A DNA stretch of 63,915 bases from Candidatus Omnitrophota bacterium (lineage in GTDB: Bacteria; Omnitrophota; Gorgyraeia; Gygaellales; Profunditerraquicolaceae), in assembly GCA_043809145.1 (NCBI GenBank), contig JAZDED010000013.1:1-63915 (forward strand), written 5' to 3'. The position numbers were made by a program, and so were the translations under genes. Below are positions 16,166-61,115 of this stretch, one piece after another (the stretch's first letter is position 1; each line of letters opens with the position of its first letter). The notes below the pieces were generated by a model. It did not search any database and had not been told where the DNA came from. It saw nothing but the letters and a program-made list of their open reading frames with translations.

Positions 16166-17035
16166 ATGAAAGTTTATATCAATGGCAAGTTTTACGAAAA
16201 GAACGAGGCTAAAATTTCGGTTTTTGACCATGGCCTGCTTTATGGCGATGGAGTATTTGAAGGTATTCGCGCTTATGGCCGCTTGGTTTTTAAACTGAAG
16301 GAACATGTAGAGCGTCTTTATGAATCCGCGCACAGTATTATGCTTAAAATACCCATGAGTAAGGATGAGATGGCAAAGGCTGTTGTGCAGACTCTTAAAA
16401 CCAACCATCTAAATGATGCTTATATCCGCCTGGTGGTAACACGCGGAGAAGGCGATCTTGGGCTTGACCCGCGCAAGTGTATCGGTCATGCCGCGGTGAT
16501 AATTATTACCGACAGAATAACCCTTTATCCGGAGAAATTCTACAAGCAAGGCCTGGAGATCATTACTGTGCCTACGGTAAGAAATCTGCCCGAGGCTTTA
16601 AATCCCCAGATAAAATCTTTAAATTATCTTAACAATATCCTGGCTAAGATTGAGGCGGTGAATTCCGGATACAACGAGGCTATTATGCTGGATTCGTTAG
16701 GGTATGTTGCAGAATGCACGGGTGATAATATTTTTCTGGTTAAAAGGAAACATCTCTATACTCCGCCGCAATGCATGGGAAGCCTGCGCGGGATTACCCG
16801 GGACGCGGTTTTAGAAATAGCCAGAAAGAGCGATGTGCCCGTACATGAACATGTGGTGACCCGGCATGAGGTATACATTTCCGATGAATGTTTTTTAACC
16901 GGAACTGCGGCTGAGATTATCCCCGTGGTCAAGGTTGACGGCAGGGTTATTGGTGAAGGTCGTCCAGGAAAAATTACCCTCGCCCTAATTAAGAAATTCA
17001 AGGAACTTACTAAGAGAGAAGGAGTAAGGTATTAA
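16166..17035 (+). CDS. ilvE: Branched-chain amino acid aminotransferase
   Basis: DHGLLYGDGVFEGIR, IKSLNYL (PLP Lys), ECTGDNIF, FLTGTAAEIIPV. Confidence 0.93.
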   Translation: MKVYINGKFYEKNEAKISVFDHGLLYGDGVFEGIRAYGRLVFKLKEHVERLYESAHSIMLKIPMSKDEMAKAVVQTLKTNHLNDAYIRLVVTRGEGDLGLDPRKCIGHAAVIIITDRITLYPEKFYKQGLEIITVPTVRNLPEALNPQIKSLNYLNNILAKIEAVNSGYNEAIMLDSLGYVAECTGDNIFLVKRKHLYTPPQCMGSLRGITRDAVLEIARKSDVPVHEHVVTRHEVYISDECFLTGTAAEIIPVVKVDGRVIGEGRPGKITLALIKKFKELTKREGVRY

Positions 17036-17532
17036 TGCTTTGTAATATATGTAATAAGAATCAGGCTACGGTGCATCTGACCGAAATAATTGACGACCAG
17101 ATGAACGAGTTGCATTTATGCGAGGAGTGCGCCAGGAATAAGAGCGTTCAAATGGAACAGCAATTTGGCCTGGCGGATTTATTAGCTGGCCTTACCGAGT
17201 TCGGCAAGGTTCCCGAAGAAAAAGATTCTCCGGAAATAAAATGCCCTAACTGCGGGCTTAATTTTAAGGAGTTTAAAAAAGTCGGCCGCCTGGGTTGCAG
17301 CGATTGCTATAATGCGTTTAAGAAATATTTGGCTCCGCTTTTAAAAAGGATTCACGGTTCAGGTGTGCATGCGGGCAAAGCCCCCGTAGGAGTAGCTAAG
17401 GATGTTAAGAAAAATTCTGAAATGCAGGAATTGCGCCAGTCGCTTCAGAAGGCGATTGAAAACGAACAATTTGAAGATGCCGCCCGGATAAGGGATGTAA
17501 TCAAAGATTTGGAAAAAAAAGAAAAGGCTTAA
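17035..17532 (+). CDS. mcsA: McsA, activator of protein arginine kinase (UvrB/C motif)
   Basis: CNIC..ATVHLT, LHLCEECA, CPNCG, GRLGCSDCY, FEDAARIRD. Confidence 0.93.
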   Translation: MLCNICNKNQATVHLTEIIDDQMNELHLCEECARNKSVQMEQQFGLADLLAGLTEFGKVPEEKDSPEIKCPNCGLNFKEFKKVGRLGCSDCYNAFKKYLAPLLKRIHGSGVHAGKAPVGVAKDVKKNSEMQELRQSLQKAIENEQFEDAARIRDVIKDLEKKEKA

Positions 17533-17547
17533 AAGCAAGGATATGCT

Positions 17548-18597
17548 ATGCAGATTAACGACTTTCTAAATCATACTACTGAATGGCTTAAAGGCACAGG
17601 GCCTCATTCGGATATCGTAATCTCCAGCCGCGTGCGCTTGGCCAGAAACATAGAGAAAAGTTCTTTTCCTCAGTGGGCGAATAAAAAGCAGAGTAAGGAT
17701 ATTTTGGATATTATTGAGGTGGCGGCAAAAAGAATAGATTACCTGAAAGAAACTACTATTTTCCACCTGGCAGATATGGATGCGGTGGATAAACAGTTCT
17801 TGATTGAGAGGCACCTGATGTCCCATGAACATGCTCAAAAAACTGATTCCAAGGCTGTTATAGTCGATGACGAAGAAATAATTTCAATTATGGTCAATGA
17901 AGAAGACCATATACGCGCGCAGGTGATGCAATCAGGTTTTAATCTTTTCGAGGGTTGGAATATTATGAATAAAATAGATGACTTTCTTTCCCAGGAGTTA
18001 CCCTTTGCTTATTCTTCTACTTGGGGATATCTAACGGCATGCCCTACAAATACCGGAACAGGTATGCGCGGCTCGGTAATGCTGCATCTGCCTGCCTTGG
18101 TGATGAGCAGGCAGATAAACCAGGTTCTGGCTGCAATATCTAAATTGCAGTTTACCGCCCGCGGATTATACGGGGAAGGTACTCAGGCCAGCGGTAATTT
18201 CTTCCAGGTTTCAAATCAGGTTTCCTTGGGACATAGTGAGAATGAAATCCTGGAGAACCTCAATGGGTTAATCCGTCAGATCATTGAGCAGGAGACTCAG
18301 GCTCGGGAAATAATGCTTAATCAGAACCGGGCGATGTTGGAAGATAAGATTCACCGCAGTTACGGAATTATCCAGAACGCGCATATTATTTCCAGCCAAG
18401 AAACTATTGAATTATTATCTATGGTTAGGCTGGGTTCGGACCTGGGAATAATTAAGGATATGGATAGAGCCAGGGTAAATGAATTATTTATTATGATTTT
18501 ACCCGCGCACTTGCAAAAGTTGGAGAAACGTAAACTCTCTTCGCAGGAGAGAGATATTAAAAGGGCAGAGTTGATTAGGAGTAGGTTAGGAAAATAA
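17548..18597 (+). CDS. mcsB: Protein arginine kinase McsB
   Basis: ISSRVRLARN, IMVNEEDH, GYLTACPTNTGTGMRGSVMLHLP, RGLYGEG. Confidence 0.95.
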   Translation: MQINDFLNHTTEWLKGTGPHSDIVISSRVRLARNIEKSSFPQWANKKQSKDILDIIEVAAKRIDYLKETTIFHLADMDAVDKQFLIERHLMSHEHAQKTDSKAVIVDDEEIISIMVNEEDHIRAQVMQSGFNLFEGWNIMNKIDDFLSQELPFAYSSTWGYLTACPTNTGTGMRGSVMLHLPALVMSRQINQVLAAISKLQFTARGLYGEGTQASGNFFQVSNQVSLGHSENEILENLNGLIRQIIEQETQAREIMLNQNRAMLEDKIHRSYGIIQNAHIISSQETIELLSMVRLGSDLGIIKDMDRARVNELFIMILPAHLQKLEKRKLSSQERDIKRAELIRSRLGK

Positions 18598-18638
18598 ACA
18601 GATATTCGAAACTGTCGCGGATAGGTAAAGATAATTTA

Positions 18639-18716
18639 GCTCCGATAGGTAAGTATTATATTATTGCTATCGGAGTAAATTGCTGCACCTATCGGTGCAG
18701 CAATTTAGGAGGGTAG
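18639..18716 (+). repeat. Double-hairpin/SD leader element, copy 2 (before clpC)
   Basis: GCTCCGATAG..CTATCGGAGT stem, perfect 14-bp TAAATTGCTGCACC/GGTGCAGCAATTTA hairpin, then GGAGGGTAG. Confidence 0.85.
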
Positions 18717-18717
18717 T

Positions 18718-21129
18718 ATGTTTAATCGTTTCACTGAAAGGGCAAGGAAAGTAATTATTCTGGCTAAAGAGGAAGCCAGGCGTTTTAATCACGATTACAT
18801 CGGGACCGAACATATTCTCCTGGGTTTAATCCGTGAGGGTGAAGGAGTAGCGGCTGTAGTCCTTGAAAAACTAGGGGCTTCTTTAGAGAATATACGTTTG
18901 GAGGTAGAGAAGTTGGTTCAGCCCGGTCCGGCAACCCAGATTATTGGAGACATACCTTTTACTCCGCGCGCGAAAAAGGCCTTGGAGCTGGCAGCAGAAG
19001 AAGCCAGAAGCCTCGGCCATAATTATATCGGCACAGAGCATCTTTTGTTAGGGCTTATTCGTGAAGAAGAGGGTGTGGCATCGCAGGTCATTTTAAATCT
19101 AGGTTTGGACTTGGAACAAGTTAGGAATAAGATTATGGAGGTTTTAGGTTCGGCTATTCCGGGATCGGACCAGAATCAGGCTAAGACTAAAACCCCTGCC
19201 CTGGATGTTTTTGGCAGAGATTTGATTACTTTAGCTAAAGACGATAAGCTTGATCCGGTAATTAACCGTAAAAATGAAATTGAACGGGTCATACAGATTT
19301 TAGGCCGCAGGACTAAGAATAATCCAGTATTGCTTGGAGAAGCCGGGGTAGGTAAAACTGCTATCGTGGAAGGTTTAGCCCAGGCTATTGTCGAGGGTAA
19401 TGTTCCCGAGGTATTAAGGCATAAGCGGATAGTGGTTTTGGATTTGGCTCTTATGGTTGCGGGAACAAAATATCGCGGACAATTCGAAGAAAGAATCAAG
19501 GCGGTTATGGAAGAAATCAAGCGTTCGCAGGACGTTATTATTTTTATCGATGAATTACACACTTTAGTCGGCGCCGGAGCTGCTGAGGGAGCAATCGATG
19601 CTTCTAATATCTTGAAGCCCGCTCTTTCGCGCGGGGAGATTCAGTGTATCGGGGCAACCACCCTTGATGAATACAGGAAGCATATCGAAAAGGATGCTGC
19701 TTTAGAAAGAAGGTTTCAGACGATTATGGTCGAGCCTCCTTCAATAGAGCAGACGATTGAGATTTTAAAAGGCCTGCGTGATAAATACGAGGCGCATCAC
19801 AAGGTAAGTTTTACCGATAGCGGCATTCAAGCAGCGGCTAAGTTTTCTGACCGTTATATCAGCGGTAGATTCTTACCGGATAAGGCCATTGACCTTATTG
19901 ATGAGGCTGGATCGCGGGCGCGATTAAATGTGCTAGTTGTGCCTCCGGAAGTTAAAAAACTCGAAGAGAAGATGGAGAATATTAGAAAAGAAAAAGAGAT
20001 TTTAATCAAGTCTCAGGATTTTGAAAAAGCTGCCGGATTAAGGGATCAGGAACGTCTCGCCCGCCAGGAATTAGAGGAACTTAATCGGGAATGGTCGCAG
20101 GCTAAGGATAAGATGCGTCCGGAGGTTAATGAAGAAGATATTGCCAAGATCGTATCGCAATGGACAGGGATACCTATCTTTAGGCTGGAGGAAAAGGAGA
20201 GCGAGAAATTATTAAAAATCGAAGACGAATTGCGTAAGCACGTAGTCGGGCAAGAGGAGGCTATATCAGCGATTGCCCATGCGGTCAGGCGTTCCCGCGC
20301 AGGCATAAAGGACCCTAAAAGGCCTATAGGTTCATTTGTTTTTTTAGGCCCTACGGGCGTAGGCAAGACTCTTTTAGCCAGGGCTTTGGCGGAATTCATG
20401 TTTGGTAATGAAAGTGCTCTTTTACAGCTGGATATGTCTGAGTATATGGAGAAAATCAATGTCTCGCGTTTACTTGGAGCTCCTCCGGGTTATGTGGGTT
20501 ATGAGGAGGGGGGGCAACTTACCGAGAGAGTAAGGCGCAGGCCTTATGCGGTAATTCTTCTAGATGAGATTGAAAAGGCTCATCCGGATGTTTTTAATCT
20601 ACTCCTGCAGGTTTTTGAAGAAGGAAGATTAACAGATAGTTTTGGCCGCAAGGTTGATTTCAGGAATACTATTGTGATTATGACTTCCAATGTTGGAGCA
20701 GAATTAATCCGGAAGAACAGCTCAATAGGTTTCCGTGACCATAAAGAAGAAGTAAATTACCAGGAGATGAAGGAGAAATTGCTGGAAGAGGTAAAACGCA
20801 CCTTTAAGCCGGAATTCTTAAACCGTATTGACGATATTATTGTTTTCAGGTCTTTAGTCAAGGAGGACTTACAGTGGATTGTAGATATCGAGATAGGTTA
20901 TGTAAACCAGCGTTTAAAGGAACATGGCTTATCGTTAGAAGTTACCCAGGAGGCCAAGGATTTGATTATTGAAAGAGGGTTCGATCCGGTTTTCGGAGCG
21001 CGGCCTCTAAAAAGGACAATCCAAAGGTTTTTAGAGGATCCTTTGGCGTCGGAGATAATTTCTAAAAAATTTAAAGAAGGCTCGCTGATCAAGGTTTTGC
21101 GTAAGGCGACCGAACTTTATTTTGAATAA
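18718..21129 (+). CDS. clpC: ATP-dependent Clp protease ATPase ClpC
   Basis: MFNRFTERARKV, two Clp-N repeats, GEAGVGKT and GPTGVGKT Walker A motifs, UVR coiled coil, FGARPL. Confidence 0.96.
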   Translation: MFNRFTERARKVIILAKEEARRFNHDYIGTEHILLGLIREGEGVAAVVLEKLGASLENIRLEVEKLVQPGPATQIIGDIPFTPRAKKALELAAEEARSLGHNYIGTEHLLLGLIREEEGVASQVILNLGLDLEQVRNKIMEVLGSAIPGSDQNQAKTKTPALDVFGRDLITLAKDDKLDPVINRKNEIERVIQILGRRTKNNPVLLGEAGVGKTAIVEGLAQAIVEGNVPEVLRHKRIVVLDLALMVAGTKYRGQFEERIKAVMEEIKRSQDVIIFIDELHTLVGAGAAEGAIDASNILKPALSRGEIQCIGATTLDEYRKHIEKDAALERRFQTIMVEPPSIEQTIEILKGLRDKYEAHHKVSFTDSGIQAAAKFSDRYISGRFLPDKAIDLIDEAGSRARLNVLVVPPEVKKLEEKMENIRKEKEILIKSQDFEKAAGLRDQERLARQELEELNREWSQAKDKMRPEVNEEDIAKIVSQWTGIPIFRLEEKESEKLLKIEDELRKHVVGQEEAISAIAHAVRRSRAGIKDPKRPIGSFVFLGPTGVGKTLLARALAEFMFGNESALLQLDMSEYMEKINVSRLLGAPPGYVGYEEGGQLTERVRRRPYAVILLDEIEKAHPDVFNLLLQVFEEGRLTDSFGRKVDFRNTIVIMTSNVGAELIRKNSSIGFRDHKEEVNYQEMKEKLLEEVKRTFKPEFLNRIDDIIVFRSLVKEDLQWIVDIEIGYVNQRLKEHGLSLEVTQEAKDLIIERGFDPVFGARPLKRTIQRFLEDPLASEIISKKFKEGSLIKVLRKATELYFE

Positions 21130-21137
21130 GGAGTTGA

Positions 21138-21923
21138 ATGTTTAAGTACCTATATATCCTAATAGGAAGGAACATTGTTTATCTGGTTTTTTTCTTAGGT
21201 GGGTTTACTAATCTGGCCTTACAGACTATTTATTGGACTTTTAGGCCTCCTTTTAAAACACGCAGGTTTCTTGAGCAGGTAAGAAAAACAGGCTCAGACA
21301 GCCTGCCTATTGTAGGCCTTATTTCATTATTCATTGGTGTTATATTTGCTTTTCAGATCTCTTATCTTATGCGCAGGATGGGTTCGGAGATGTATATTGC
21401 CAGCCTTGTTTCTCTATCTATAGTCAGGGAACTCGGGCCGGTAATAACTTCGCTTGTAGTCGCAGGCAGGGTGGGCGCGGCAATTACCGCCGAGATTGGT
21501 TCTATGCAAGTTACCGAGCAGGTTGATGCCTTGCAGACCTTAGCTACAAGCCCGGTGAAATACCTGGTTGTTCCACGGTTCTTGGCTTTAAGCCTTATGC
21601 TGCCTATTTTGACTCTTTACGCTAATATTATAGGAATTCTGGGAGGGTGGTTGATTTGCGTTTACAAATTAGGGATTACCTCTAGCATGTACTGGAATAT
21701 TGCTTTTGAGGCTTTGCAATTCAAAGATCTATTTACCGGATTGTTTAAGACGTTAATTTTCGGTATGGTTATTGCTTTTGTTAGCTGTTATGAAGGTTTT
21801 AATGTTAAGGGCGGGGCAGAAGGCGTGGGACAGGCAACTACCAGGTCAGTGGTATTATCTTTTGTTATGATTATCGCCTGCGACTGTTTTTTTACAGCTT
21901 TATTTTATTTTATCTTTCCCTAA
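21138..21923 (+). CDS. mlaE: MlaE family lipid ABC transporter permease
   Basis: VRELGPVIT, AGRVGAAITAEIGSMQVTEQVDAL, GGAEGVGQATT. Confidence 0.92.
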   Translation: MFKYLYILIGRNIVYLVFFLGGFTNLALQTIYWTFRPPFKTRRFLEQVRKTGSDSLPIVGLISLFIGVIFAFQISYLMRRMGSEMYIASLVSLSIVRELGPVITSLVVAGRVGAAITAEIGSMQVTEQVDALQTLATSPVKYLVVPRFLALSLMLPILTLYANIIGILGGWLICVYKLGITSSMYWNIAFEALQFKDLFTGLFKTLIFGMVIAFVSCYEGFNVKGGAEGVGQATTRSVVLSFVMIIACDCFFTALFYFIFP

Positions 21924-21924
21924 G

Positions 21925-22680
21925 ATGACGGTTATAGAGTTAGAAGGATTGAGTAAACAATTTAATTCTCACAGGGTCCTGATTGATCTCAGTTTAAAAA
22001 TTGAGCGAGGCTCGACCTTGGTTGTAATCGGCCGCTCCGGGTGCGGCAAGAGCGTTATGTTAAAACATATAATGGGTTTAATAAAGCCGGATGCGGGAAA
22101 GGTTATGATTGAGGGTAGGGATTTTTGGAAACTAAATGGGGACGAGCAGAACCAGATTGTTTCTCGGATGAATATGGTTTTTCAAGGCGGGGCATTATTT
22201 GATTCCCTTAGCGTGGGTGAGAATGTAGGATTTGAGATCATTGAACATAACTTAGTTGGAAAATCAGAGCTCCAATTCCGCGTAAAGGAGGCTCTGTCTC
22301 TGGTCGGCCTCTCAGGAATTAATAATCTTATGCCTGCGGAATTAAGCGGAGGCATGCGTAAACGCGTGGCGTTGGCCAGGGCATTGTGTATGCGGCCGGA
22401 AATTATCCTATATGATGAGCCCACGACCGGAGTCGACCCTATTACCGCTGATAGTATTAATGAACTTATTAAGGACTTGCACGACAAATTAAAAGTTACT
22501 TCTATAGTAGTCACGCATGATATGAAGAGCGCCTATAAGGTTGCGGATCAAGTTGCCATGCTTTATAACGGAAAAATTATTGCTTTCGGTACTCCACTCG
22601 AGATTCAGGAGAGCGCGGATCCGGTAGTACATCAGTTTATTAATGGTTTGGCCAAAGGCCCAATAACAGATTACGAGTAG
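21925..22680 (+). CDS. mlaF: MlaF family ABC ATP-binding protein
   Basis: GRSGCGKS, LSGGMRKRVALARA, LYDEPTTGVDP, VTHD. Confidence 0.9.
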   Translation: MTVIELEGLSKQFNSHRVLIDLSLKIERGSTLVVIGRSGCGKSVMLKHIMGLIKPDAGKVMIEGRDFWKLNGDEQNQIVSRMNMVFQGGALFDSLSVGENVGFEIIEHNLVGKSELQFRVKEALSLVGLSGINNLMPAELSGGMRKRVALARALCMRPEIILYDEPTTGVDPITADSINELIKDLHDKLKVTSIVVTHDMKSAYKVADQVAMLYNGKIIAFGTPLEIQESADPVVHQFINGLAKGPITDYE

Positions 22681-22706
22681 GCTTAATCTATAAACGGAGG
22701 TAGGCT

Positions 22707-23354
22707 ATGGAATTTGGGAAGACGAGGGTAGAATATAAAATAGGTTTTTTTGTTTTTACAGGATTAATCATACTTGTAATCTTTATTTTGATGATCGGAG
22801 ACCTTAAACACGCCTTTTCCAAACATAAAATAAACTTTATTTTTAATTTTGTTAATGGGGTCAAAATCGGTGCTCCAGTTAGATATGCCGGTTTGGATAT
22901 AGGAGAAATCAGGGATATGAAATTAATAACCTCTGAAGACGGAAAGTCTACTCTGGTTAAGCTGGAGGGTTGGGTAAAGCAGGAAATTAAGATTCCCATT
23001 GATTCCCAGGTTTGGGTGAATACTCTCGGCCTTTTAGGAGAGAAGTATGTGGAGATTATGCCTGGAAAAGACACTAAAAGATTTGTAGGGTATAATGGAA
23101 AGATGACAGGTAATGATCCTTTCGCCATGCAGGAATTTGGCGAATTGGGGCGCTCCATAGCTATTAAATTGGATAATGTTCTGACTGAAGTCCAGGATTT
23201 AGCCAGGTCGTTTGATGAGGGAATCACTCGCGTTAAAAATAAGGAAGGAACGGTTGGAAAGTTGCTTTATCAGGACGAGATCTATAATGATCTAAGGGAT
23301 ATGGTGCAGGACCTAAAAAAGCACCCCTGGAAGTTATTCTGGAAAACAAAATAG
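22707..23354 (+). CDS. mlaD: MlaD/MCE domain protein
   Basis: N-terminal TM helix, GVKIGAPVRYAG, TLGLLGEKYVEI. Confidence 0.88.
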   Translation: MEFGKTRVEYKIGFFVFTGLIILVIFILMIGDLKHAFSKHKINFIFNFVNGVKIGAPVRYAGLDIGEIRDMKLITSEDGKSTLVKLEGWVKQEIKIPIDSQVWVNTLGLLGEKYVEIMPGKDTKRFVGYNGKMTGNDPFAMQEFGELGRSIAIKLDNVLTEVQDLARSFDEGITRVKNKEGTVGKLLYQDEIYNDLRDMVQDLKKHPWKLFWKTK

Positions 23355-23356
23355 AT

Positions 23357-24739
23357 ATGTCCATTAAGACTAAAACTATATTTTCCTGTCAGACTTGCGG
23401 ATTCCAATCTCCCAAATGGCTGGGTAAATGCCCTGACTGTAATACCTGGAATGCTTTCGTAGAAGAGGATTATCAGCCAATAAACCCCAAAATTAAAGAG
23501 CGCGTTATTTCTTTATATAAAGATACCCCAGTCTTATTAAAAGATGTCCAGGAGAATGATTCTTCAAGGATTAAAATCGGCATTGATGAGTTGGACCGGG
23601 TTTTAGGAGGGGGGATAGTCCGGGGGTCGGTTGTTTTAATAGGCGGAGATCCGGGTATCGGTAAATCTACGCTGTCGCTTCAAATATCCAACCAGCTTGC
23701 AGGTAAGGGGCATACTGTCTTATATGTAAGTTCAGAGGAATCGGTTATACAGACCAAGATGCGGGCTAAGCGTTTGGGTACAGGGATAAAAGAGGGTGAT
23801 CTTTATATTGTTAATCAGGTCGACCTTTCTTGTATTTTAGAATATATAAAAAAGATAAAACCGCATTTGGTCATTATTGATTCTATTCAGGTAATATTTG
23901 AGCCGAGTATCAGTTCTTCGGCCGGAAGCGTCAGTCAGGTAAGGGAGTGCGCCGGATTACTTACGCAGCTGGCTAAAACCACCGGAATCCCTATTTTTAT
24001 TATCGGCCATGTTACTAAAGAGGGGATGATTGCCGGTCCGCGCGTATTGGAGCATATTGTGGATACCGTGCTTTATTTTGAAGGAGACAGATTCGCCGTA
24101 TACAGGATATTGCGGGCAGTAAAGAATAGATTTGGCTCTACTAATGAAATCGGAGTATTTGAAATGACTTCCTCGGGCCTTAAAGAGGTAAGAAACCCAT
24201 CGGAGATATTTCTATCCGAGAGGCCTAAACAGGCATCAGGTTCAGTGGTAGTGCCGATTATGGAGGGCAGCCGTCCTGTGTTGGTTGAAATTCAGGCGCT
24301 GGTAGCTAAAAGTAGTTTTGGTTATGCCCAGCGTAGAGCCCAAGGATTTGATTCTAACCGGCTGTCTTTATTGGTTGCGGTTTTGGAAAAAAGGATCGGT
24401 TTGAGCCTGGAAAATGAGGATATTTTTGTCAATGTTGCCGGAGGCATTAAAATAGAAGATCCGGCAGCTGATTTGGCAGTAGCAGTGGCAGTTGCTTCTT
24501 CTTTTCTGGAAAAGCTGGTTATTGATCAGGCGGTAGTTTTAGGGGAGGTAGGATTAGGGGGAGAACTAAGAGGGACTACTCAGGTAGCCTTGCGTATTAA
24601 CGAAGCAGCTAAATTAGGGTTTAAGCACGCTATTATACCAAAGAATAATACCAAAGGCCTTGATTATAAGAAAGATTTAATTGAATTATCTGCGGCTTCT
24701 GTTCTTAAGGAGGCTCTGGATATTGCGCTAAGGGGGTAA
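23357..24739 (+). CDS. radA: DNA repair protein RadA/Sms
   Basis: [29 protein letters not shown]. Confidence 0.96.
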
Positions 24740-54681: not shown

Positions 54682-54803
54682 GGCAATATTTGTCTCAAAA
54701 AAATTCGGTTAAGCAAAAATGTAGCGGCCAATTTTTTGACCTGTAATTGACATAACAGGGCTATCCCTAAAAAATATGATTGCAAAAAACCCAATTTGTG
54801 AAT

Positions 54804-57800
54804 ATGGAAGATAAAGAATTAATCTATATTGACGATCTTACCGGAATCTATAACCGCCGGGCTTTCAAGGAAAACCTGGAAAAAGACCTTTCTTTACCCG
54901 AAGAACAGGTAAAAGATTTATACCTGGCGCTCACCGACCTCGACCATTTCAAGAAGATCAATGATACTTACGGGCATCTTAGCGGAGATTACATGATTAA
55001 GGCCTTTGCCGATGCCCTTACCCAGGGATTAAAGGGTACGGATAGTTTGGTTGCCAGATACGGCGGTGATGAATTTATAGTTATTTTAAGGAAAATGGAT
55101 AAGCAAAATATAATCAATCTCTTGGATAAGGTCAGGCAGGATTTGGCTCAAAAAGAATTTATTCTTCCGGAGAATAATCAGAGTATAAAAGTTACCATGA
55201 GTATTGGCATTTCAGGGTATCCTACCGACGGCAGGAACGTAGATGACCTTTTTTCCCAGGCTGACCAGGCGTTATATTCTTCAAAGCGCCTAGGCAGAAA
55301 TCGCCTGTCTCTGGCCAAGGATATTCTTGAGCAGGTTAAAGAGGAGAAGAGGGTAGAGGATGCAATCCTCAAACCTTTTTTTGTGGGCAGGGAAAATGAA
55401 TTTAACGAGGCTAAGAAGTTTTTATTCGGTGAAGAGACACACAAGGTCGTATTGATTGATGGCGATGTTGGAGTAGGTAAAAGCAGGATTTTAAATGAGA
55501 TCTTTGCGGCGACAAAAGAAAAAAATATTGAGGCTTTTCTTCTGGTTTGTTCGGAACTGCAGAAAGATAAACCCTACGGGCTCCTGGCAGATATTATAAA
55601 TGCTATCAGCCACAACCGCCTGGAGCCATGCCAGAAGATATATGACTCTTTAAAACCAAAGCAAAAAAAAGCCCTTTCAGGCCTCCCTACTCTAAAACTG
55701 CTTACCGGGTCTTCGGAAGCGATTACCGAATGGGATGCTGATGCCAGGTTAAATTTGTTCCAAGGCCTGGTGGATTTACTTGAACACATACTTAATGAGC
55801 TTAAACCGGTTATTTTGATTGATAACTTGGACTGGATTGATGAGGCAAGCGTGGAGATATTAAGTTACCTGATAGTTTCCAGAAAAGACTCTCCCCTTTC
55901 TCTTTGCGCCAGTGATAGCCGGCCAAGCAGCAAAAAAGACAAAAGGGAATCTCATCTGGATACCCTGCTCACTGAAGTCGCCGAATTCGAAATCGTTCCC
56001 CATATAACCCTGCCAACCCTGACAGAATATTCAATTCGTTATCTGTTGAATAGTATTTTTGGCGATGGCGTGATCCCTGACCATTTTATATCAAATGTTT
56101 GTTCTGTCACCAGAGGCAACCCCTTCTTTATTACCGAGTTATTAAGGGATTTATTAGCTAGAAACGTAGTCTATTTAAAATATCCGGAATGGGTATTCAA
56201 TGAAAAAAACGAAGCCCTGCCCCATGACTTAAAAGAATTATTGATGAGCAAGTTTAAGAGCATGGATCAGGAGGAGAAGGAGCTTTTGATGGCCGCAGCC
56301 GGCCTGGGAGGGAATCTTAAGTTTGACTTTCTCTCGAAATTAAAGAATATGAATAGCGGGTATCTTCAGGACATAATCGGTAATACCGCAGATAAAAATA
56401 TCTTTAATAAGGCTGAGGTGGGCATTTCAGGGGCGCTTGCTTTTAACAATGAAATGACCAGGGCTTTATTTTATGAGAGTATTGACGAAGAGACCAAGAA
56501 GAAGATACATTTCGATATCGCAACCGCGCTGGAAAATGAAAATAAGGGAAGCCTTGAGTCCATAAGTTCGGAACTGGCATATCACTTTAATAAAGCAAAC
56601 TTCATGGCTAAGGTAAAAGAGTATAGCGCAATAGCCTTGGCCTATATGGACAAACTTTTTTCTGACGCGGAGACAGAAAAGATCATTGAGGAGGCTGTCC
56701 GGCAAAGAGAAGAAAAAGACAAGTTTGAGCCGATAAAGGACGAGTCTTGGCCTTTTATCATGGAGATTATTACTTCTTTTAATTCGGCGATAAAAAATAT
56801 GCAATCCTATCAAGGATATAATGCCCTAACAGACAGAATGATAGAAAAGATTGTGTCTATTCTGGGTCAATTATTTAAGATGCAGAATAATCTTACATTT
56901 TGCAACCCTCAGGGAGTATCCAAGGACTCTAATTTAGTCTTGGTAAACGGGCAGGAATTTAAAAAGGCTACTGCTGTAGAAGAGACGGTGAGAAGAAGGT
57001 TAGTAGATATTTTAAAAATATCAAATATAGGCAGTATTACCTTTACCCGTGGCACGAAGAAGAAGGACCTGGAGATTTTTATCAGCATTTTAGGTAACCA
57101 AAAGCTCCTGTTTGAAAAGAAGGAGAATTGGTCAAAGGTTTTAGCTGAAAATAAGATTAGCGGCCTCAAGATTGATACAGTGCTTTATAAAAGAATACTT
57201 TCGGAAGATGAGAAGAATGAGTTTCACAAGGATTTTATCAAGGATTTTGTATCTAAAAAAGTAGCGATAGAGGATGTGGCTGGCGCGGGACAAAATGTGC
57301 AAATCAGCCTGGATAAAAGAATCCAGGGCATGTCGGAGCTGGAGAAGAATGTATTTGCTAAAACTATCGCGCATCTGCCAATAGATATAATTATGGGTGC
57401 TATAGCGGATGAATATAAAGGCCGCAAAGGCGCTATCCTGGATATCAAGGATATGGTTCTGGTTTATATAAGGAATGTCCAGCAAAAAGAACAATTTGCC
57501 CTGCTTTTACATAAACATTTGGATAAACTGGGTGTTTCAAAGGAGTGTTTCTCCTGGCTGATTGATGAAACGGATTTTCTGCAGTATCCGGTTACTAAAA
57601 GGGCCAATACATATATAAATACCGACGCCAAGACAATTTTAGAGATGGGGGTAATTGAAAACCTCAAGCCCACCCTTATTGAGCTTTTTAGCGCGAATGA
57701 GGATGAAGTGGCAAAAAGAGTGACGGATAAATATCTAAGTAATCTTCAAAGCGATGTCGCCGAATTCCGGGTTTATATGGGCAATACCTTGCAAGAGATT

Positions 57801-58664
57801 GTCAGTATTATTCCGGCTAAAATTTCTGCAGATTATATTAAAATAATCGCAAACACATTTAAGGAATCTTTAAAGAAGGAAAGTGACGCAACTGTTTACG
57901 CCTATTTAATAAAGAATGCGGGTTTGTTAATTTATAAGTTTTTGGAATTAAATGACTTTGAGAATATAGACAGTTTGCTGTTTTTATTGAATGAATTTGC
58001 AGGGGCAGCTTACCCAGTGGAATGGAAAAGAGATTTGACTCAAAAGGCATTGCAGGAATTCGATTCCGCAGACTTAAATACTCAATTGGCAGAGCTAATG
58101 AATGAGGCTGCTTTTGACAGTTCTAAAAACACTATTCTTGTGAGCATATTGAAGAAATTGATGCCTGCCCCTATTCCTTATCTTATTGATTTAATGTTAA
58201 AAAGGTCTGCGATTTCGTTGCCCTTTGAATGGTATTCGCAGAACCTGCAGATCATAGGTATATTCAAGGAATATAAGGCGGAGATTGTATCCGAGATAGA
58301 GGTAATGCTGGAACATGAGAATAAAGTAGACCTGGCCTTTGATTTACTGAAGAATTTCCCGGATGATAATCTTCTCTATTTTTATGAAAAGGCTTTATCG
58401 AGCAAGAAAGACAAAGTTCATAGGCGTGCCGTAAAAGCGCTGGCTGAACTGGATACAGAGGCGTCTCTAAAGAAGGTAGAAAATATATTTGCTAATATTG
58501 ATTCTGATGCGCAGAGGAAGGTCATCCAGTCTATATCTGAACACGGCCATAGTAAGCAAGCCCTTGTTTTTTTACTGAGGCTGAAAGACTCTCAAAACCA
58601 AGCGCATAATAGAAAAGAAATTCTTGAAGCTATAGAGAAGTTAAGAACCAGAAGCGGCGGTTAA
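54804..58664 (+). CDS. GGDEF diguanylate cyclase - STAND/AAA_16 NTPase - helical (TPR/HEAT-like) protein
   Basis: DLDHFKKINDTYGH, RYGGDEF, FVGRENE, GDVGVGKS, ILIDNLDWID, RGNPFF; C-terminal HEAT-like helices. Likely ATG 54804. Confidence 0.82.
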   Translation: MEDKELIYIDDLTGIYNRRAFKENLEKDLSLPEEQVKDLYLALTDLDHFKKINDTYGHLSGDYMIKAFADALTQGLKGTDSLVARYGGDEFIVILRKMDKQNIINLLDKVRQDLAQKEFILPENNQSIKVTMSIGISGYPTDGRNVDDLFSQADQALYSSKRLGRNRLSLAKDILEQVKEEKRVEDAILKPFFVGRENEFNEAKKFLFGEETHKVVLIDGDVGVGKSRILNEIFAATKEKNIEAFLLVCSELQKDKPYGLLADIINAISHNRLEPCQKIYDSLKPKQKKALSGLPTLKLLTGSSEAITEWDADARLNLFQGLVDLLEHILNELKPVILIDNLDWIDEASVEILSYLIVSRKDSPLSLCASDSRPSSKKDKRESHLDTLLTEVAEFEIVPHITLPTLTEYSIRYLLNSIFGDGVIPDHFISNVCSVTRGNPFFITELLRDLLARNVVYLKYPEWVFNEKNEALPHDLKELLMSKFKSMDQEEKELLMAAAGLGGNLKFDFLSKLKNMNSGYLQDIIGNTADKNIFNKAEVGISGALAFNNEMTRALFYESIDEETKKKIHFDIATALENENKGSLESISSELAYHFNKANFMAKVKEYSAIALAYMDKLFSDAETEKIIEEAVRQREEKDKFEPIKDESWPFIMEIITSFNSAIKNMQSYQGYNALTDRMIEKIVSILGQLFKMQNNLTFCNPQGVSKDSNLVLVNGQEFKKATAVEETVRRRLVDILKISNIGSITFTRGTKKKDLEIFISILGNQKLLFEKKENWSKVLAENKISGLKIDTVLYKRILSEDEKNEFHKDFIKDFVSKKVAIEDVAGAGQNVQISLDKRIQGMSELEKNVFAKTIAHLPIDIIMGAIADEYKGRKGAILDIKDMVLVYIRNVQQKEQFALLLHKHLDKLGVSKECFSWLIDETDFLQYPVTKRANTYINTDAKTILEMGVIENLKPTLIELFSANEDEVAKRVTDKYLSNLQSDVAEFRVYMGNTLQEIVSIIPAKISADYIKIIANTFKESLKKESDATVYAYLIKNAGLLIYKFLELNDFENIDSLLFLLNEFAGAAYPVEWKRDLTQKALQEFDSADLNTQLAELMNEAAFDSSKNTILVSILKKLMPAPIPYLIDLMLKRSAISLPFEWYSQNLQIIGIFKEYKAEIVSEIEVMLEHENKVDLAFDLLKNFPDDNLLYFYEKALSSKKDKVHRRAVKALAELDTEASLKKVENIFANIDSDAQRKVIQSISEHGHSKQALVFLLRLKDSQNQAHNRKEILEAIEKLRTRSGG

Positions 58665-60463: not shown

Positions 60464-60871
60464 GGGGGTGAAAGGTCTCGACTTAGGATAGTTGGGTAAG
60501 AGCAGCATGCCGCGGAGGCAAGGTCGGCCGCGTTAACAATCCTTGCACAATTAAACGCAAAACCAACAATGGTTAACCGTCTACCAGTAGTCGGATCAGT
60601 AATGGTTCAGCCTCCGGTAGCGGGCGTTCCAGCCTTTAGCTTAATATAAGCTAAAGCCTCTCACCAGGTTGCCTGTGGCTTGAATGAGAGCCCTTAGCAG
60701 GATAGTTCTGGCCAGTTTGCCTTTGGGGCCAGGGCGAAATTAAAAAGGCTGCGCCCGGATGTATCCTGCCTGTCGGAGCCGTCGGGGTTAAGTTTAAAAG
60801 ATCAGGCTAAGCATGTAGTGGCTCTTATGCTTCTACTTAAGGACGCGGCTTCAATGCCGCCACCTCCACCA
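60464..60871 (+). ncRNA. ssrA: tmRNA
   Basis: 5' GGGGGUG pairs with CACCUCC-ACCA and has the G3.U alanine identity pair; GCAUGCCG/pk1 region; directly after smpB. Confidence 0.95.
60557..60649 (+). other. tmRNA tag reading frame, 30 codons: AKPTMVNRLPVVGSVMVQPPVAGVPAFSLI*
   Basis: Resume GCA lies 10 nt after pk1 (..CCTTGC ACAATTAAAC GCA); the TAA falls in the H5-like hairpin CTTTAGCTT/AAGCTAAAG. Confidence 0.75.
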
Positions 60872-61115
60872 ATTTTTTCTGACAAAGAAAAAATTGGTGG
60901 CACTCAAGCGAACGTTAAACGGCACGACAAGTGCCGTAGTGAGCGGAGTGCATACCATTTCCGACAAGGAAATTTTTGGTGGCACTCAAATAGGCACCGC
61001 AAAAAGCGTGCGGTGTAATTCACCGACCGCAAGGTTATAGTGAATTAAGCGTAGCCGAGCGACAAGCGAGGCAGCGAGTGTGGCGCCACCAATCCGACAA
61101 GCCCCGCTGCGCGGG
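60866..61115. repeat. Cluster of hairpins with recurrent GACAA after the tmRNA 3' end
   Basis: GACAA at 60881, 60926, 60963, 61061 and 61096; TTGGTGGCACTCAA occurs twice. Confidence 0.75.

Follow-up and report, generated by a model that had tools for sequence, protein, structure and literature searches.

The DNA analysed here (contig JAZDED010000013.1, 63,915 nt, in the following called the window) carries directly behind smpB an ssrA gene for a one-piece transfer-messenger RNA (tmRNA), and relatives of its SmpB in named genomes assign the organism, an uncultured groundwater bacterium, to Candidatus Omnitrophota. The tag appended by this tmRNA is predicted to comprise 30 residues, is rich in Val and Pro, holds no Asp or Glu and ends in FSLI. 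Across the phylum, the C-terminal Ala-Ala of such tags tracks the presence of ClpX, an association that is new in this analysis. The two hallmarks of a degron directed to ClpXP, an Ala-Ala end and a ClpX encoded in the same genome, are both missing from the window tag and its genome. We consider it likely that the system performs ordinary trans-translation, that the long tail is largely a by-product of RNA structure, that the Ala-Ala end was lost after ClpX and that disposal of tagged proteins is left to the remaining proteases. A previous sequence-only reading had suggested that stalled products are rerouted in this lineage to another protease or adaptor, possibly Lon or McsB-ClpC. The rerouting itself is supported in so far as the lineage is unable to use the canonical ClpXP/SspB route: none of the 41 genomes of its order encodes ClpX, SspB or HslU, and Ala-Ala is linked to ClpX across the phylum. 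Lon, in contrast, has to be dropped from the list of candidates.

The comparative evidence comes from 251 Omnitrophota genomes evenly drawn from the phylum, all of them metagenome-assembled genomes (MAGs) and referred to by anonymised family codes (f1, f43, etc.). Among these, a tmRNA was found in 215, ClpX above cut-off in 72, Lon in 10-11 and the protein arginine kinase McsB in 242. With 120 further tmRNAs retrieved, tags were tabulated against ClpX and Lon status. All ClpX-positive genomes (38/38) show a tag end of the type (L/I/F/M)AA, which holds even at lengths of 19-27 residues, for example, in ADKLSWNERAAGPVSVPSFAALPIAA and AKKMVNGFAPVVPMRPIVAPMALAA. In ClpX-negative genomes, by contrast, the end is a different one in 81 out of 90 cases (p = 3e-24 in a Fisher test that ignores phylogeny), with family-specific termini such as FGLN, LPH, VLP, ALAL/ALPL, SALGY, EALAVA, PALV, PVLA and AGVR. 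When ClpX presence is mapped onto a tree of the tmRNA backbone, computed without the tag open reading frame (ORF), 13 changes are required, and well-supported branches force at least six of them; as this tree is poorly resolved at depth, only a minimum number of transitions was taken from it. Within family f43, a young ClpX-less clade has tags ending in ...PLAA and ...PFAA and, in one genome, in ...PFAV, as expected if loss of the Ala-Ala end follows loss of ClpX. Full-text searches for literature on tmRNA tags of Omnitrophota or Omnitrophica gave nothing relevant, and the tmRNA database papers from 2014 and 2025 do not discuss Omnitrophota tags, hairpins within the ORF or a link to ClpX.

Protein family models were used to search 41 genomes from the window's order, of which 20 have a completeness of 90% or more. 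ClpX was not found above cut-off in any of the 41 (best score 33 bits versus a cut-off of 371), Lon likewise in none above cut-off, and HslU and SspB were each missing from all 41. ClpP, on the other hand, is encoded in 39/41 and FtsH in 41/41 genomes, the latter nearly always as two paralogues. In the genome of the window itself (contig C34, 1500-7000, locus L248), tig and clpP are followed by a class-V aminotransferase gene at the usual place of clpX. Its two FtsH copies of 631 and 586 aa (C12:4439-6223 and C34:66525-68003, loci L246 and L247) both show transmembrane (TM) segments, an intact AAA domain and the HExGH site (HESGH and HEAGH). Hence ClpC, encoded in the window, appears to be the sole ClpP-docking unfoldase found in the lineage, with ClpC-ClpP and FtsH as the AAA+ protease systems left, both of which look competent from their conserved motifs. 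HslUV and SspB, also considered as tag readers, were discarded due to their absence from the order (0/41 for HslU and for SspB). As separate observations, the trigger factor ORF next to clpP has only 293 aa and matches Trigger_N and Trigger_C but not the peptidyl-prolyl isomerase domain, and the shorter FtsH matches the FtsH model only from about position 100, a feature conserved throughout the order.

The same surveys bear on a switch as in Mollicutes, where a long tag is read by Lon. The similar tag length (30 versus 27 residues) and the small, ClpX-less genomes of both lineages speak for this idea. However, Lon is missing in 41/41 genomes of the order and in about 96% of the phylum (present in 10-11/251), and the analogy fails because its defining protease is missing. 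Moreover, where Lon does occur in Omnitrophota, it goes along with short canonical tags, 8-11 residues long in 9/10 Lon-positive genomes (ANELALAA type; families f17, f26, f28 and f39), whereas the median tag of Lon-negative genomes has 26 residues. A reading of the window tag by Lon is thus hardly conceivable. The order's VPAFGLN resembles VPTFMLN, probably part of the M. florum tag; as Lon is absent here, this lead was dropped.

Two further observations concern the protease equipment of other Omnitrophota. Genome G058 (family f14, 98% complete) encodes the short canonical tag ANEHLALAA but gave no match to ClpX, Lon or McsB, and it is the only high-quality Omnitrophota genome devoid of McsB. 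In G270, G098, G100, G108, G116 and others, a ClpX-like paralogue of about 520 aa scoring about 290-310 bits, that is, under the ClpX cut-off of 371, occurs either alongside true ClpX or in its stead.

How selection acts on the tag end was assessed from the final three tag codons, in which differences were counted separately for each codon position. In the ClpX-positive long-tag families (f15, f19, f20, f48 and f50), positions 1, 2 and 3 differ in 56, 0 and 165 cases, with 134 synonymous and 49 non-synonymous codon pairs, a pattern indicating purifying selection on the peptide. This signature is lacking in the window's order, where the corresponding values are 804, 616 and 680, with 165 synonymous and 962 non-synonymous codon pairs. 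Correspondingly, the terminal dipeptide is invariably AA in the ClpX-positive families versus nine kinds among the 19 members of the window's family f1. The FSLI of the window derives from the family's FGLN, UUC GGG CUU AAU having turned into UUU AGC UUA AUA, while helix 5, the hairpin that holds the end of the ORF, shows matching compensation in its 3' arm. Taken as codon statistics, these data point to relaxed constraint on the tag C-terminus in the order and not to a newly specified degron, the end probably evolving mainly under RNA constraint.

In its extreme form, relaxation would mean that the tag is no degradation signal any more, ribosome release being all that matters and the peptide being a neutral read-out of structured RNA. 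The near-even distribution of last-codon substitutions over codon positions with their large non-synonymous excess, the widely varying C-termini inside families and the strong RNA-level signal in the ORF would all agree with this. Yet the ORF stays open over 23-35 codons with its stop in helix 5 in 31/31 relatives, the tags remain apolar or unstructured with an end that is never charged, and truncated proteins would pile up in a small cell with few proteases. In addition, a tag of two residues, a length that occurs elsewhere (PMC11915505), would be enough to release the ribosome, but the long ORFs persist. We therefore regard complete loss of the degradation function as quite unlikely.

The RNA-level signal is evident already from the window, where the segment 60550-60665 folds with -38.5 kcal/mol (z = -4.93 versus dinucleotide shuffles) into two hairpins within the ORF plus helix 5. 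In the latter, compensatory changes among relatives affect 9/11 pairs. The first ORF hairpin is read as K-P-T-M-V, and relatives have at this site ACAC...GUGU, read as N-T-x-V. Since column-wise covariation analysis was not suited to the central region, folds of individual sequences were compared with codon shuffles and complemented by a tetraloop census. For 127 long Omnitrophota tags, the ORF without its last five codons folds more stably than codon-order shuffles (median z of -2.65, 76% below -2), and this excess is alike in lineages with and without ClpX. A hairpin with a GNRA or UNCG loop as its cap is found in 46/127 ORFs versus 2.8% of the shuffles. Near relatives show swaps between GCAA and UUCG loops (M-A-T-L versus M-F-A-L) and between ACAC/GUGU and ACCA/UGGU stems (N-T-x-V versus K-P-x-M-V), by which the peptide is altered while the helix is kept. 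Even the conserved NRL and AGV motifs correspond to the two paired strands at the base of the central hairpin. The richness in Pro, Met-Val, Ala and Gly would then follow from reading G+C-rich stems such as CCA/UGG and GCN/NGC in frame, and the predicted hairpins account for much of the tag's length and composition.

The observation of the tag itself is confirmed. ARAGORN with relaxed threshold (-ps) gives letter for letter the peptide proposed by the sequence-only reading, AKPTMVNRLPVVGSVMVQPPVAGVPAFSLI followed by the stop codon, at 60557-60649. Likewise, its other statements on the frame agree with the models: the resume codon GCA (60557-60559) coincides with the consensus resume position of Rfam and follows UUAAAC, in which U occupies -5 and A occupies -4, and the folds place the TAA (60647-60649) at the junction of the helix 5 loop with its 3' arm. 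The equivalents of these -5/-4 nucleotides in E. coli tmRNA are U85 and A86; of 147 Omnitrophota tmRNAs, 91 have TA and 52 have CA at this place. The tag is strongly apolar, with a grand average of hydropathy (GRAVY) of +0.90 versus -0.43 for ANDENYALAA, and the near lack of acidic residues noted before amounts to complete absence.

The frame is also conserved. In 31/31 tmRNAs of the window's order it is open for 23-35 codons, whereas stops at unconserved places limit frames +1 and +2 in the same RNAs to medians of 7 and 10 codons, respectively. A conserved short frame with ...AA end is not seen in the relatives. The tags of the 30 relatives from the same family and order (23-35 residues) show a high content of Pro, Val, Ala and Met, the nearest one to that of the window being ANHTMVNRLSAIQPAFSPLVVPPVAGALAFGVH. 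The N-terminal motifs ANT/AKP..V.NRL and the C-terminal ones lie in a common frame despite the varying length. Ends in the order include ...VPAFGLN, ...FGFN, ...VLPH and ...VLP, with AA in 0/31. Tags of 19-38 residues are usual in the phylum, and long non-AA tags are present in named Omnitrophota MAGs as well, whereas ssrA genes adjoining smpB in outgroups (Desulfobacterota, Dehalococcoidia, Brocadiia, Spirochaetota and Bacillota), retrieved by the same search and serving as an internal control, encode tags of 9-11 residues such as AETDLALAA, GERQFALAA, ANNQMAMAA and ANNNAELALAA. Hence, a mis-called frame or resume codon hiding a short true tag has next to no probability, although default ARAGORN is silent at this locus and the +2 frame yields a short peptide: the position of the GCA, the conservation of U-A at -5/-4 and of a GCN resume codon, and the presence of N- and C-terminal motifs in one frame all contradict it. 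It has to be added that, of about 150 tag calls made by ARAGORN for the phylum, 22 had the wrong frame or were lacking and were re-derived by hand from the conserved resume context.

The gene is a genuine and expressed member of the tmRNA family, with RF00023 architecture, its smpB partner and a discrete RNA. The covariance model RF00023 aligns in full length (model positions 1-374) with a score of 156.8 bits at a gathering score of 47, and smpB ends 62 nt upstream of the ssrA start. The 7-bp acceptor stem GGGGGUG/CACCUCC contains, as read off the sequence, the alanine-specifying pair G3-U70. RNA contigs from three groundwater metatranscriptome sets span 60464-60871 and neither flank; one of them, 313 nt long, covers the complete tag ORF and has a single strain difference, T60591C, changing Val12 to Ala. 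A tryptic peptide derived from the window tag would be LPVVGSVMVQPPVAGVPAFSLI. At its default threshold, ARAGORN reported only a tRNA-Leu and no tmRNA in the window. This is probably caused by the T-arm at 60848-60860 (GCGGC-UUCAAU-GCCGC), the 5-bp stem of which encloses a loop of 6 instead of the usual 7 nt, seen as a 1-nt deletion in the Rfam alignment and shared by 4/103 scored Omnitrophota tmRNAs.

Regarding disposal, the sequence-only reading had located McsB and ClpC in the window, and both genes are found there, preceded by one for a McsA-like protein. A dedicated ClpCP degron has to be weighed, in which McsB would phosphorylate the conserved R8 of the tag (...MVNRL...) and the resulting phosphoarginine (pArg) would dock on the ClpC N-domain. 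Besides the clustering of the three genes, this is suggested by a ClpC that is a full-length orthologue of the B. subtilis protein and retains both N-domain GTEH repeats and an IGF loop for docking to ClpP (VGF in B. subtilis), by the presence of ClpP without ClpX and by at least one Arg in 30/31 tags of the order, often as N/S-R-L. However, McsB is encoded phylum-wide, in 196/197 high-quality genomes regardless of ClpX status or tag type, and was rejected as a discriminating marker on this ground. Moreover, tags from some ClpX-less families have neither Arg nor Lys, such as ANYNPVAEAEEILASEALAVA and those of f11, while a conserved Arg is also seen in the ClpX-positive families f43 and f48. 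As the codon for Arg forms part of the central hairpin's basal stem, RNA pairing can explain why it is conserved, and at an Arg frequency of 5% a 28-residue tag is expected to hold Arg about 76% of the time anyway. As a tag-specific route, pArg appears weak and the dedicated degron decidedly unlikely; McsB-ClpC as such, present and seemingly competent but phylum-wide, is neither supported nor refuted by the comparison.

Alternatively, FtsH might be the chief protease, acting near the membrane on a hydrophobic tail (GRAVY +0.9) that offers an unstructured initiation segment of about 20 residues, as required by FtsH, with its duplication offsetting the loss of cytosolic proteases. The two apparently intact paralogues in the own genome, the near-universal duplication in the order and the hydrophobicity of the window tag are compatible with this role, and degradation of SsrA-tagged proteins by FtsH is described for E. 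coli (Herman et al., 1998, as cited in PMC8403727). But being universal, FtsH does not provide a discriminating comparative signal, the tags of many ClpX-less families are acidic and amphipathic (AEAEAILA...) and not hydrophobic, and ClpX-positive lineages have long tags, too. A leading role of FtsH is accordingly judged unlikely. Our best inference, reached by elimination, is that ClpCP and/or FtsH act on a generic hydrophobic tail.

Several points weigh against the favored explanation of a structural by-product with relaxed end. Nine ClpX-negative genomes retain Ala-Ala (G058, family f26, which is Lon-positive, genus g141 of f43, G088, G200 and G226); some of them may be incomplete MAGs, while others show that Ala-Ala can persist without ClpX. 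The Fisher test is blind to phylogeny, and deep branches of the tmRNA tree are poorly resolved. Column-wise covariation with MAFFT/RNAalifold recovered helix 5 only, as indels scramble the region of the central hairpin; the ORF hairpins are minimum free energy (MFE) predictions and the evidence for structure is wholly computational. At the C-terminus, there is residual conservation in the order, with Asn at the end of 20/31 tags and PAGVPAF in many, so that a weak peptide-level signal may exist, albeit in codons that lie in helices. A highly divergent substitute for ClpX or Lon would slip past the family models, and degradation of the tagged proteins itself we infer by elimination.

Considering all this, the mechanism might proceed as follows. 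Charged with alanine due to G3-U70, the tmRNA would enter stalled ribosomes together with SmpB, translation would resume at GCA 60557 and terminate at TAA 60647, and a 30-residue tail would be appended. Most Omnitrophota tag ORFs would possess, 5' of the universal helix 5, an additional small 5' hairpin and a long central one, often capped by GNRA or UUCG, making the Val/Pro-rich peptide largely a by-product of selected RNA structure. After the order had lost ClpX, being also without Lon, HslU and SspB, selection for a ClpX-binding ...LAA-COOH would have lapsed, and the C-terminus would drift under the constraint of helix 5 alone, giving FGLN, FGFN, LPH, VLP and here FSLI. Tagged proteins would still be cleared by ClpC-ClpP, possibly with McsA/McsB, and/or by the two membrane-bound FtsH paralogues, which would recognize the long, unstructured and hydrophobic tail without a sequence-specific degron. 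More tentatively, and in our view a possibility short of likely, many Omnitrophota might run trans-translation without any of the known dedicated readers (ClpX, SspB, Lon and HslUV), their mRNA-like domain being mainly a structured RNA module of two extra helices with selected tetraloops that gives family-specific, fast-evolving tails and the reader representing a new ssrA route, either McsB-ClpCP acting on the conserved Arg or the duplicated FtsH.

Table 1. Features of the window related to trans-translation and protein turnover (ORF, open reading frame; MFE, minimum free energy; PK1, pseudoknot 1).
Feature	Position	Strand	Basis
ssrA, one-piece tmRNA, 408 nt	60464-60871	+	Rfam RF00023, ARAGORN -ps, metatranscriptome contigs
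5' tRNA-like domain, acceptor strand GGGGGUG	60464-60489	+	ARAGORN, tmRNA positions 1-26
PK1 region, 5' of resume codon	60509-60546	+	Rfam alignment, hairpin GCAAGGU...AUCCUUGC on PK1 helix
Tag frame: resume codon GCA, 30 codons (AKPTMVNRLPVVGSVMVQPPVAGVPAFSLI), TAA stop	60557-60649	+	
ORF hairpin 1, AACCA-ACAA-UGGUU, predicted	60561-60574	+	MFE folds
Central ORF hairpin, codons 7-23, GUAA (GNRA) tetraloop at 60599-60602, predicted	60577-60623	+	MFE folds
Helix 5, 5' arm coding for F-S-L-I, stop codon after loop	60631-60659	+	Folds, covariation
3' tRNA-like domain, encoded CCA end, 6-nt T-loop UUCAAU	60834-60871	+	ARAGORN, tmRNA positions 371-408
Terminator-like inverted repeat over tmRNA 3' end	60866-60900	+	Repeat search, 15-nt arms, 100% complementary
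smpB, tmRNA protein partner, 151 aa	59946-60401	+	Pfam SmpB, E = 2e-57, profile 2-143 of 143
McsA-like protein, UVR motif	17035-17532	+	Pfam UVR, E = 2.2e-7; directly upstream of mcsB
McsB protein arginine kinase	17548-18597	+	Pfam ATP-gua_Ptrans, E = 5.8e-68
ClpC, 803 aa	18718-21129	+	1053 bits to B. subtilis ClpC (PDB 3J3S/3J3T), residues 1-789

Around these features, some further observations were made. In a DNA contig from a near-identical strain (run X1), the 147 bp at 60901-61047 downstream of ssrA are missing and replaced by 11 other letters. In the window, this segment is bordered by a 32-nt direct repeat (60876-60907 and 60958-60989, 84% identity), which includes the 3' arm of the terminator of ssrA; the segment possibly represents a small insertion or an integration remnant at the tmRNA gene. 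The mcsA-like/mcsB/clpC genes belong to a Firmicutes-style cluster (17035-24739) with radA a few genes downstream, which is conserved in the phylum; ctsR is not adjacent, the upstream gene encoding a class-IV aminotransferase. The ORF at 54780-58664 (1294 aa) has an unusual architecture, with a GGDEF diguanylate cyclase domain at the N-terminus, a STAND-type AAA_16 ATPase and HEAT repeats at the C-terminus.

Recognition of the ssrA tag by ClpXP is the textbook case of a degron; the only exception from nature that is understood, to our knowledge, is that of the Mollicutes with their switch to Lon. If the more tentative reading of a new ssrA route is true, Omnitrophota would provide the second natural re-wiring of the ssrA pathway, replicated at least six times in one phylum. 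They can be seen as a replicated natural experiment in which ...LAA is kept with ClpX by strong purifying selection even at 20-27 residues and lost in lineages that have neither ClpX nor Lon and HslUV, raising the questions of how trans-translation products are cleared without known readers and to what extent RNA structure or peptide function shapes tags. On the practical side, default ARAGORN skips or mis-frames several such genes, and annotation pipelines consequently under-call Omnitrophota tmRNAs.

Compared with canonical tmRNA-SmpB systems, the ...ALAA tags of which are directed to ClpXP/SspB, as in E. coli with its ANDENYALAA tag and in B. subtilis, the window tmRNA shares G3-U70, PK1, the GCA resume codon with U-A at -5/-4, the stop codon in helix 5, PK2-4, the adjacent smpB and expression as a stable RNA. 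It differs in a tag that is three times longer, apolar, non-acidic and terminated by ...FSLI, in two extra ORF hairpins, in the 6-nt T-loop and in the lack of ClpX and SspB. With the McsB/pArg-ClpCP quality control of B. subtilis, the lineage has in common the clustered mcsA-like, mcsB and clpC genes, the docking loop and N-domain repeats of ClpC as well as ClpP, but McsB is not confined to ClpX-less Omnitrophota. The ssrA-tagged proteins of B. subtilis are handed to ClpXP, and pArg is not known to be connected with an ssrA tag of any kind. As in E. coli, FtsH would be a membrane AAA+ protease accepting C-terminal tails that are apolar, and every genome of the order encodes it; while it is a minor route beside ClpXP in E. 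coli, it would be one of two routes left in the window's lineage, equipped with two paralogues. A documented precedent is found in the Mollicutes, where a 27-residue tag in the absence of ClpXP is degraded by Lon (PMC8403727; PMC10695633; Gur and Sauer, 2008). The tags of Mesoplasma florum and Mycoplasma pneumoniae are likewise long and without canonical ClpX end, stem from small genomes that have lost ClpX and had their end changed after protease loss. In contrast to these, the window's lineage has no Lon and no aromatic end of the YAFA type, its codon data suggest relaxation and not re-specification, and in Omnitrophota Lon goes with short tags, the reverse of the pattern in Mollicutes.

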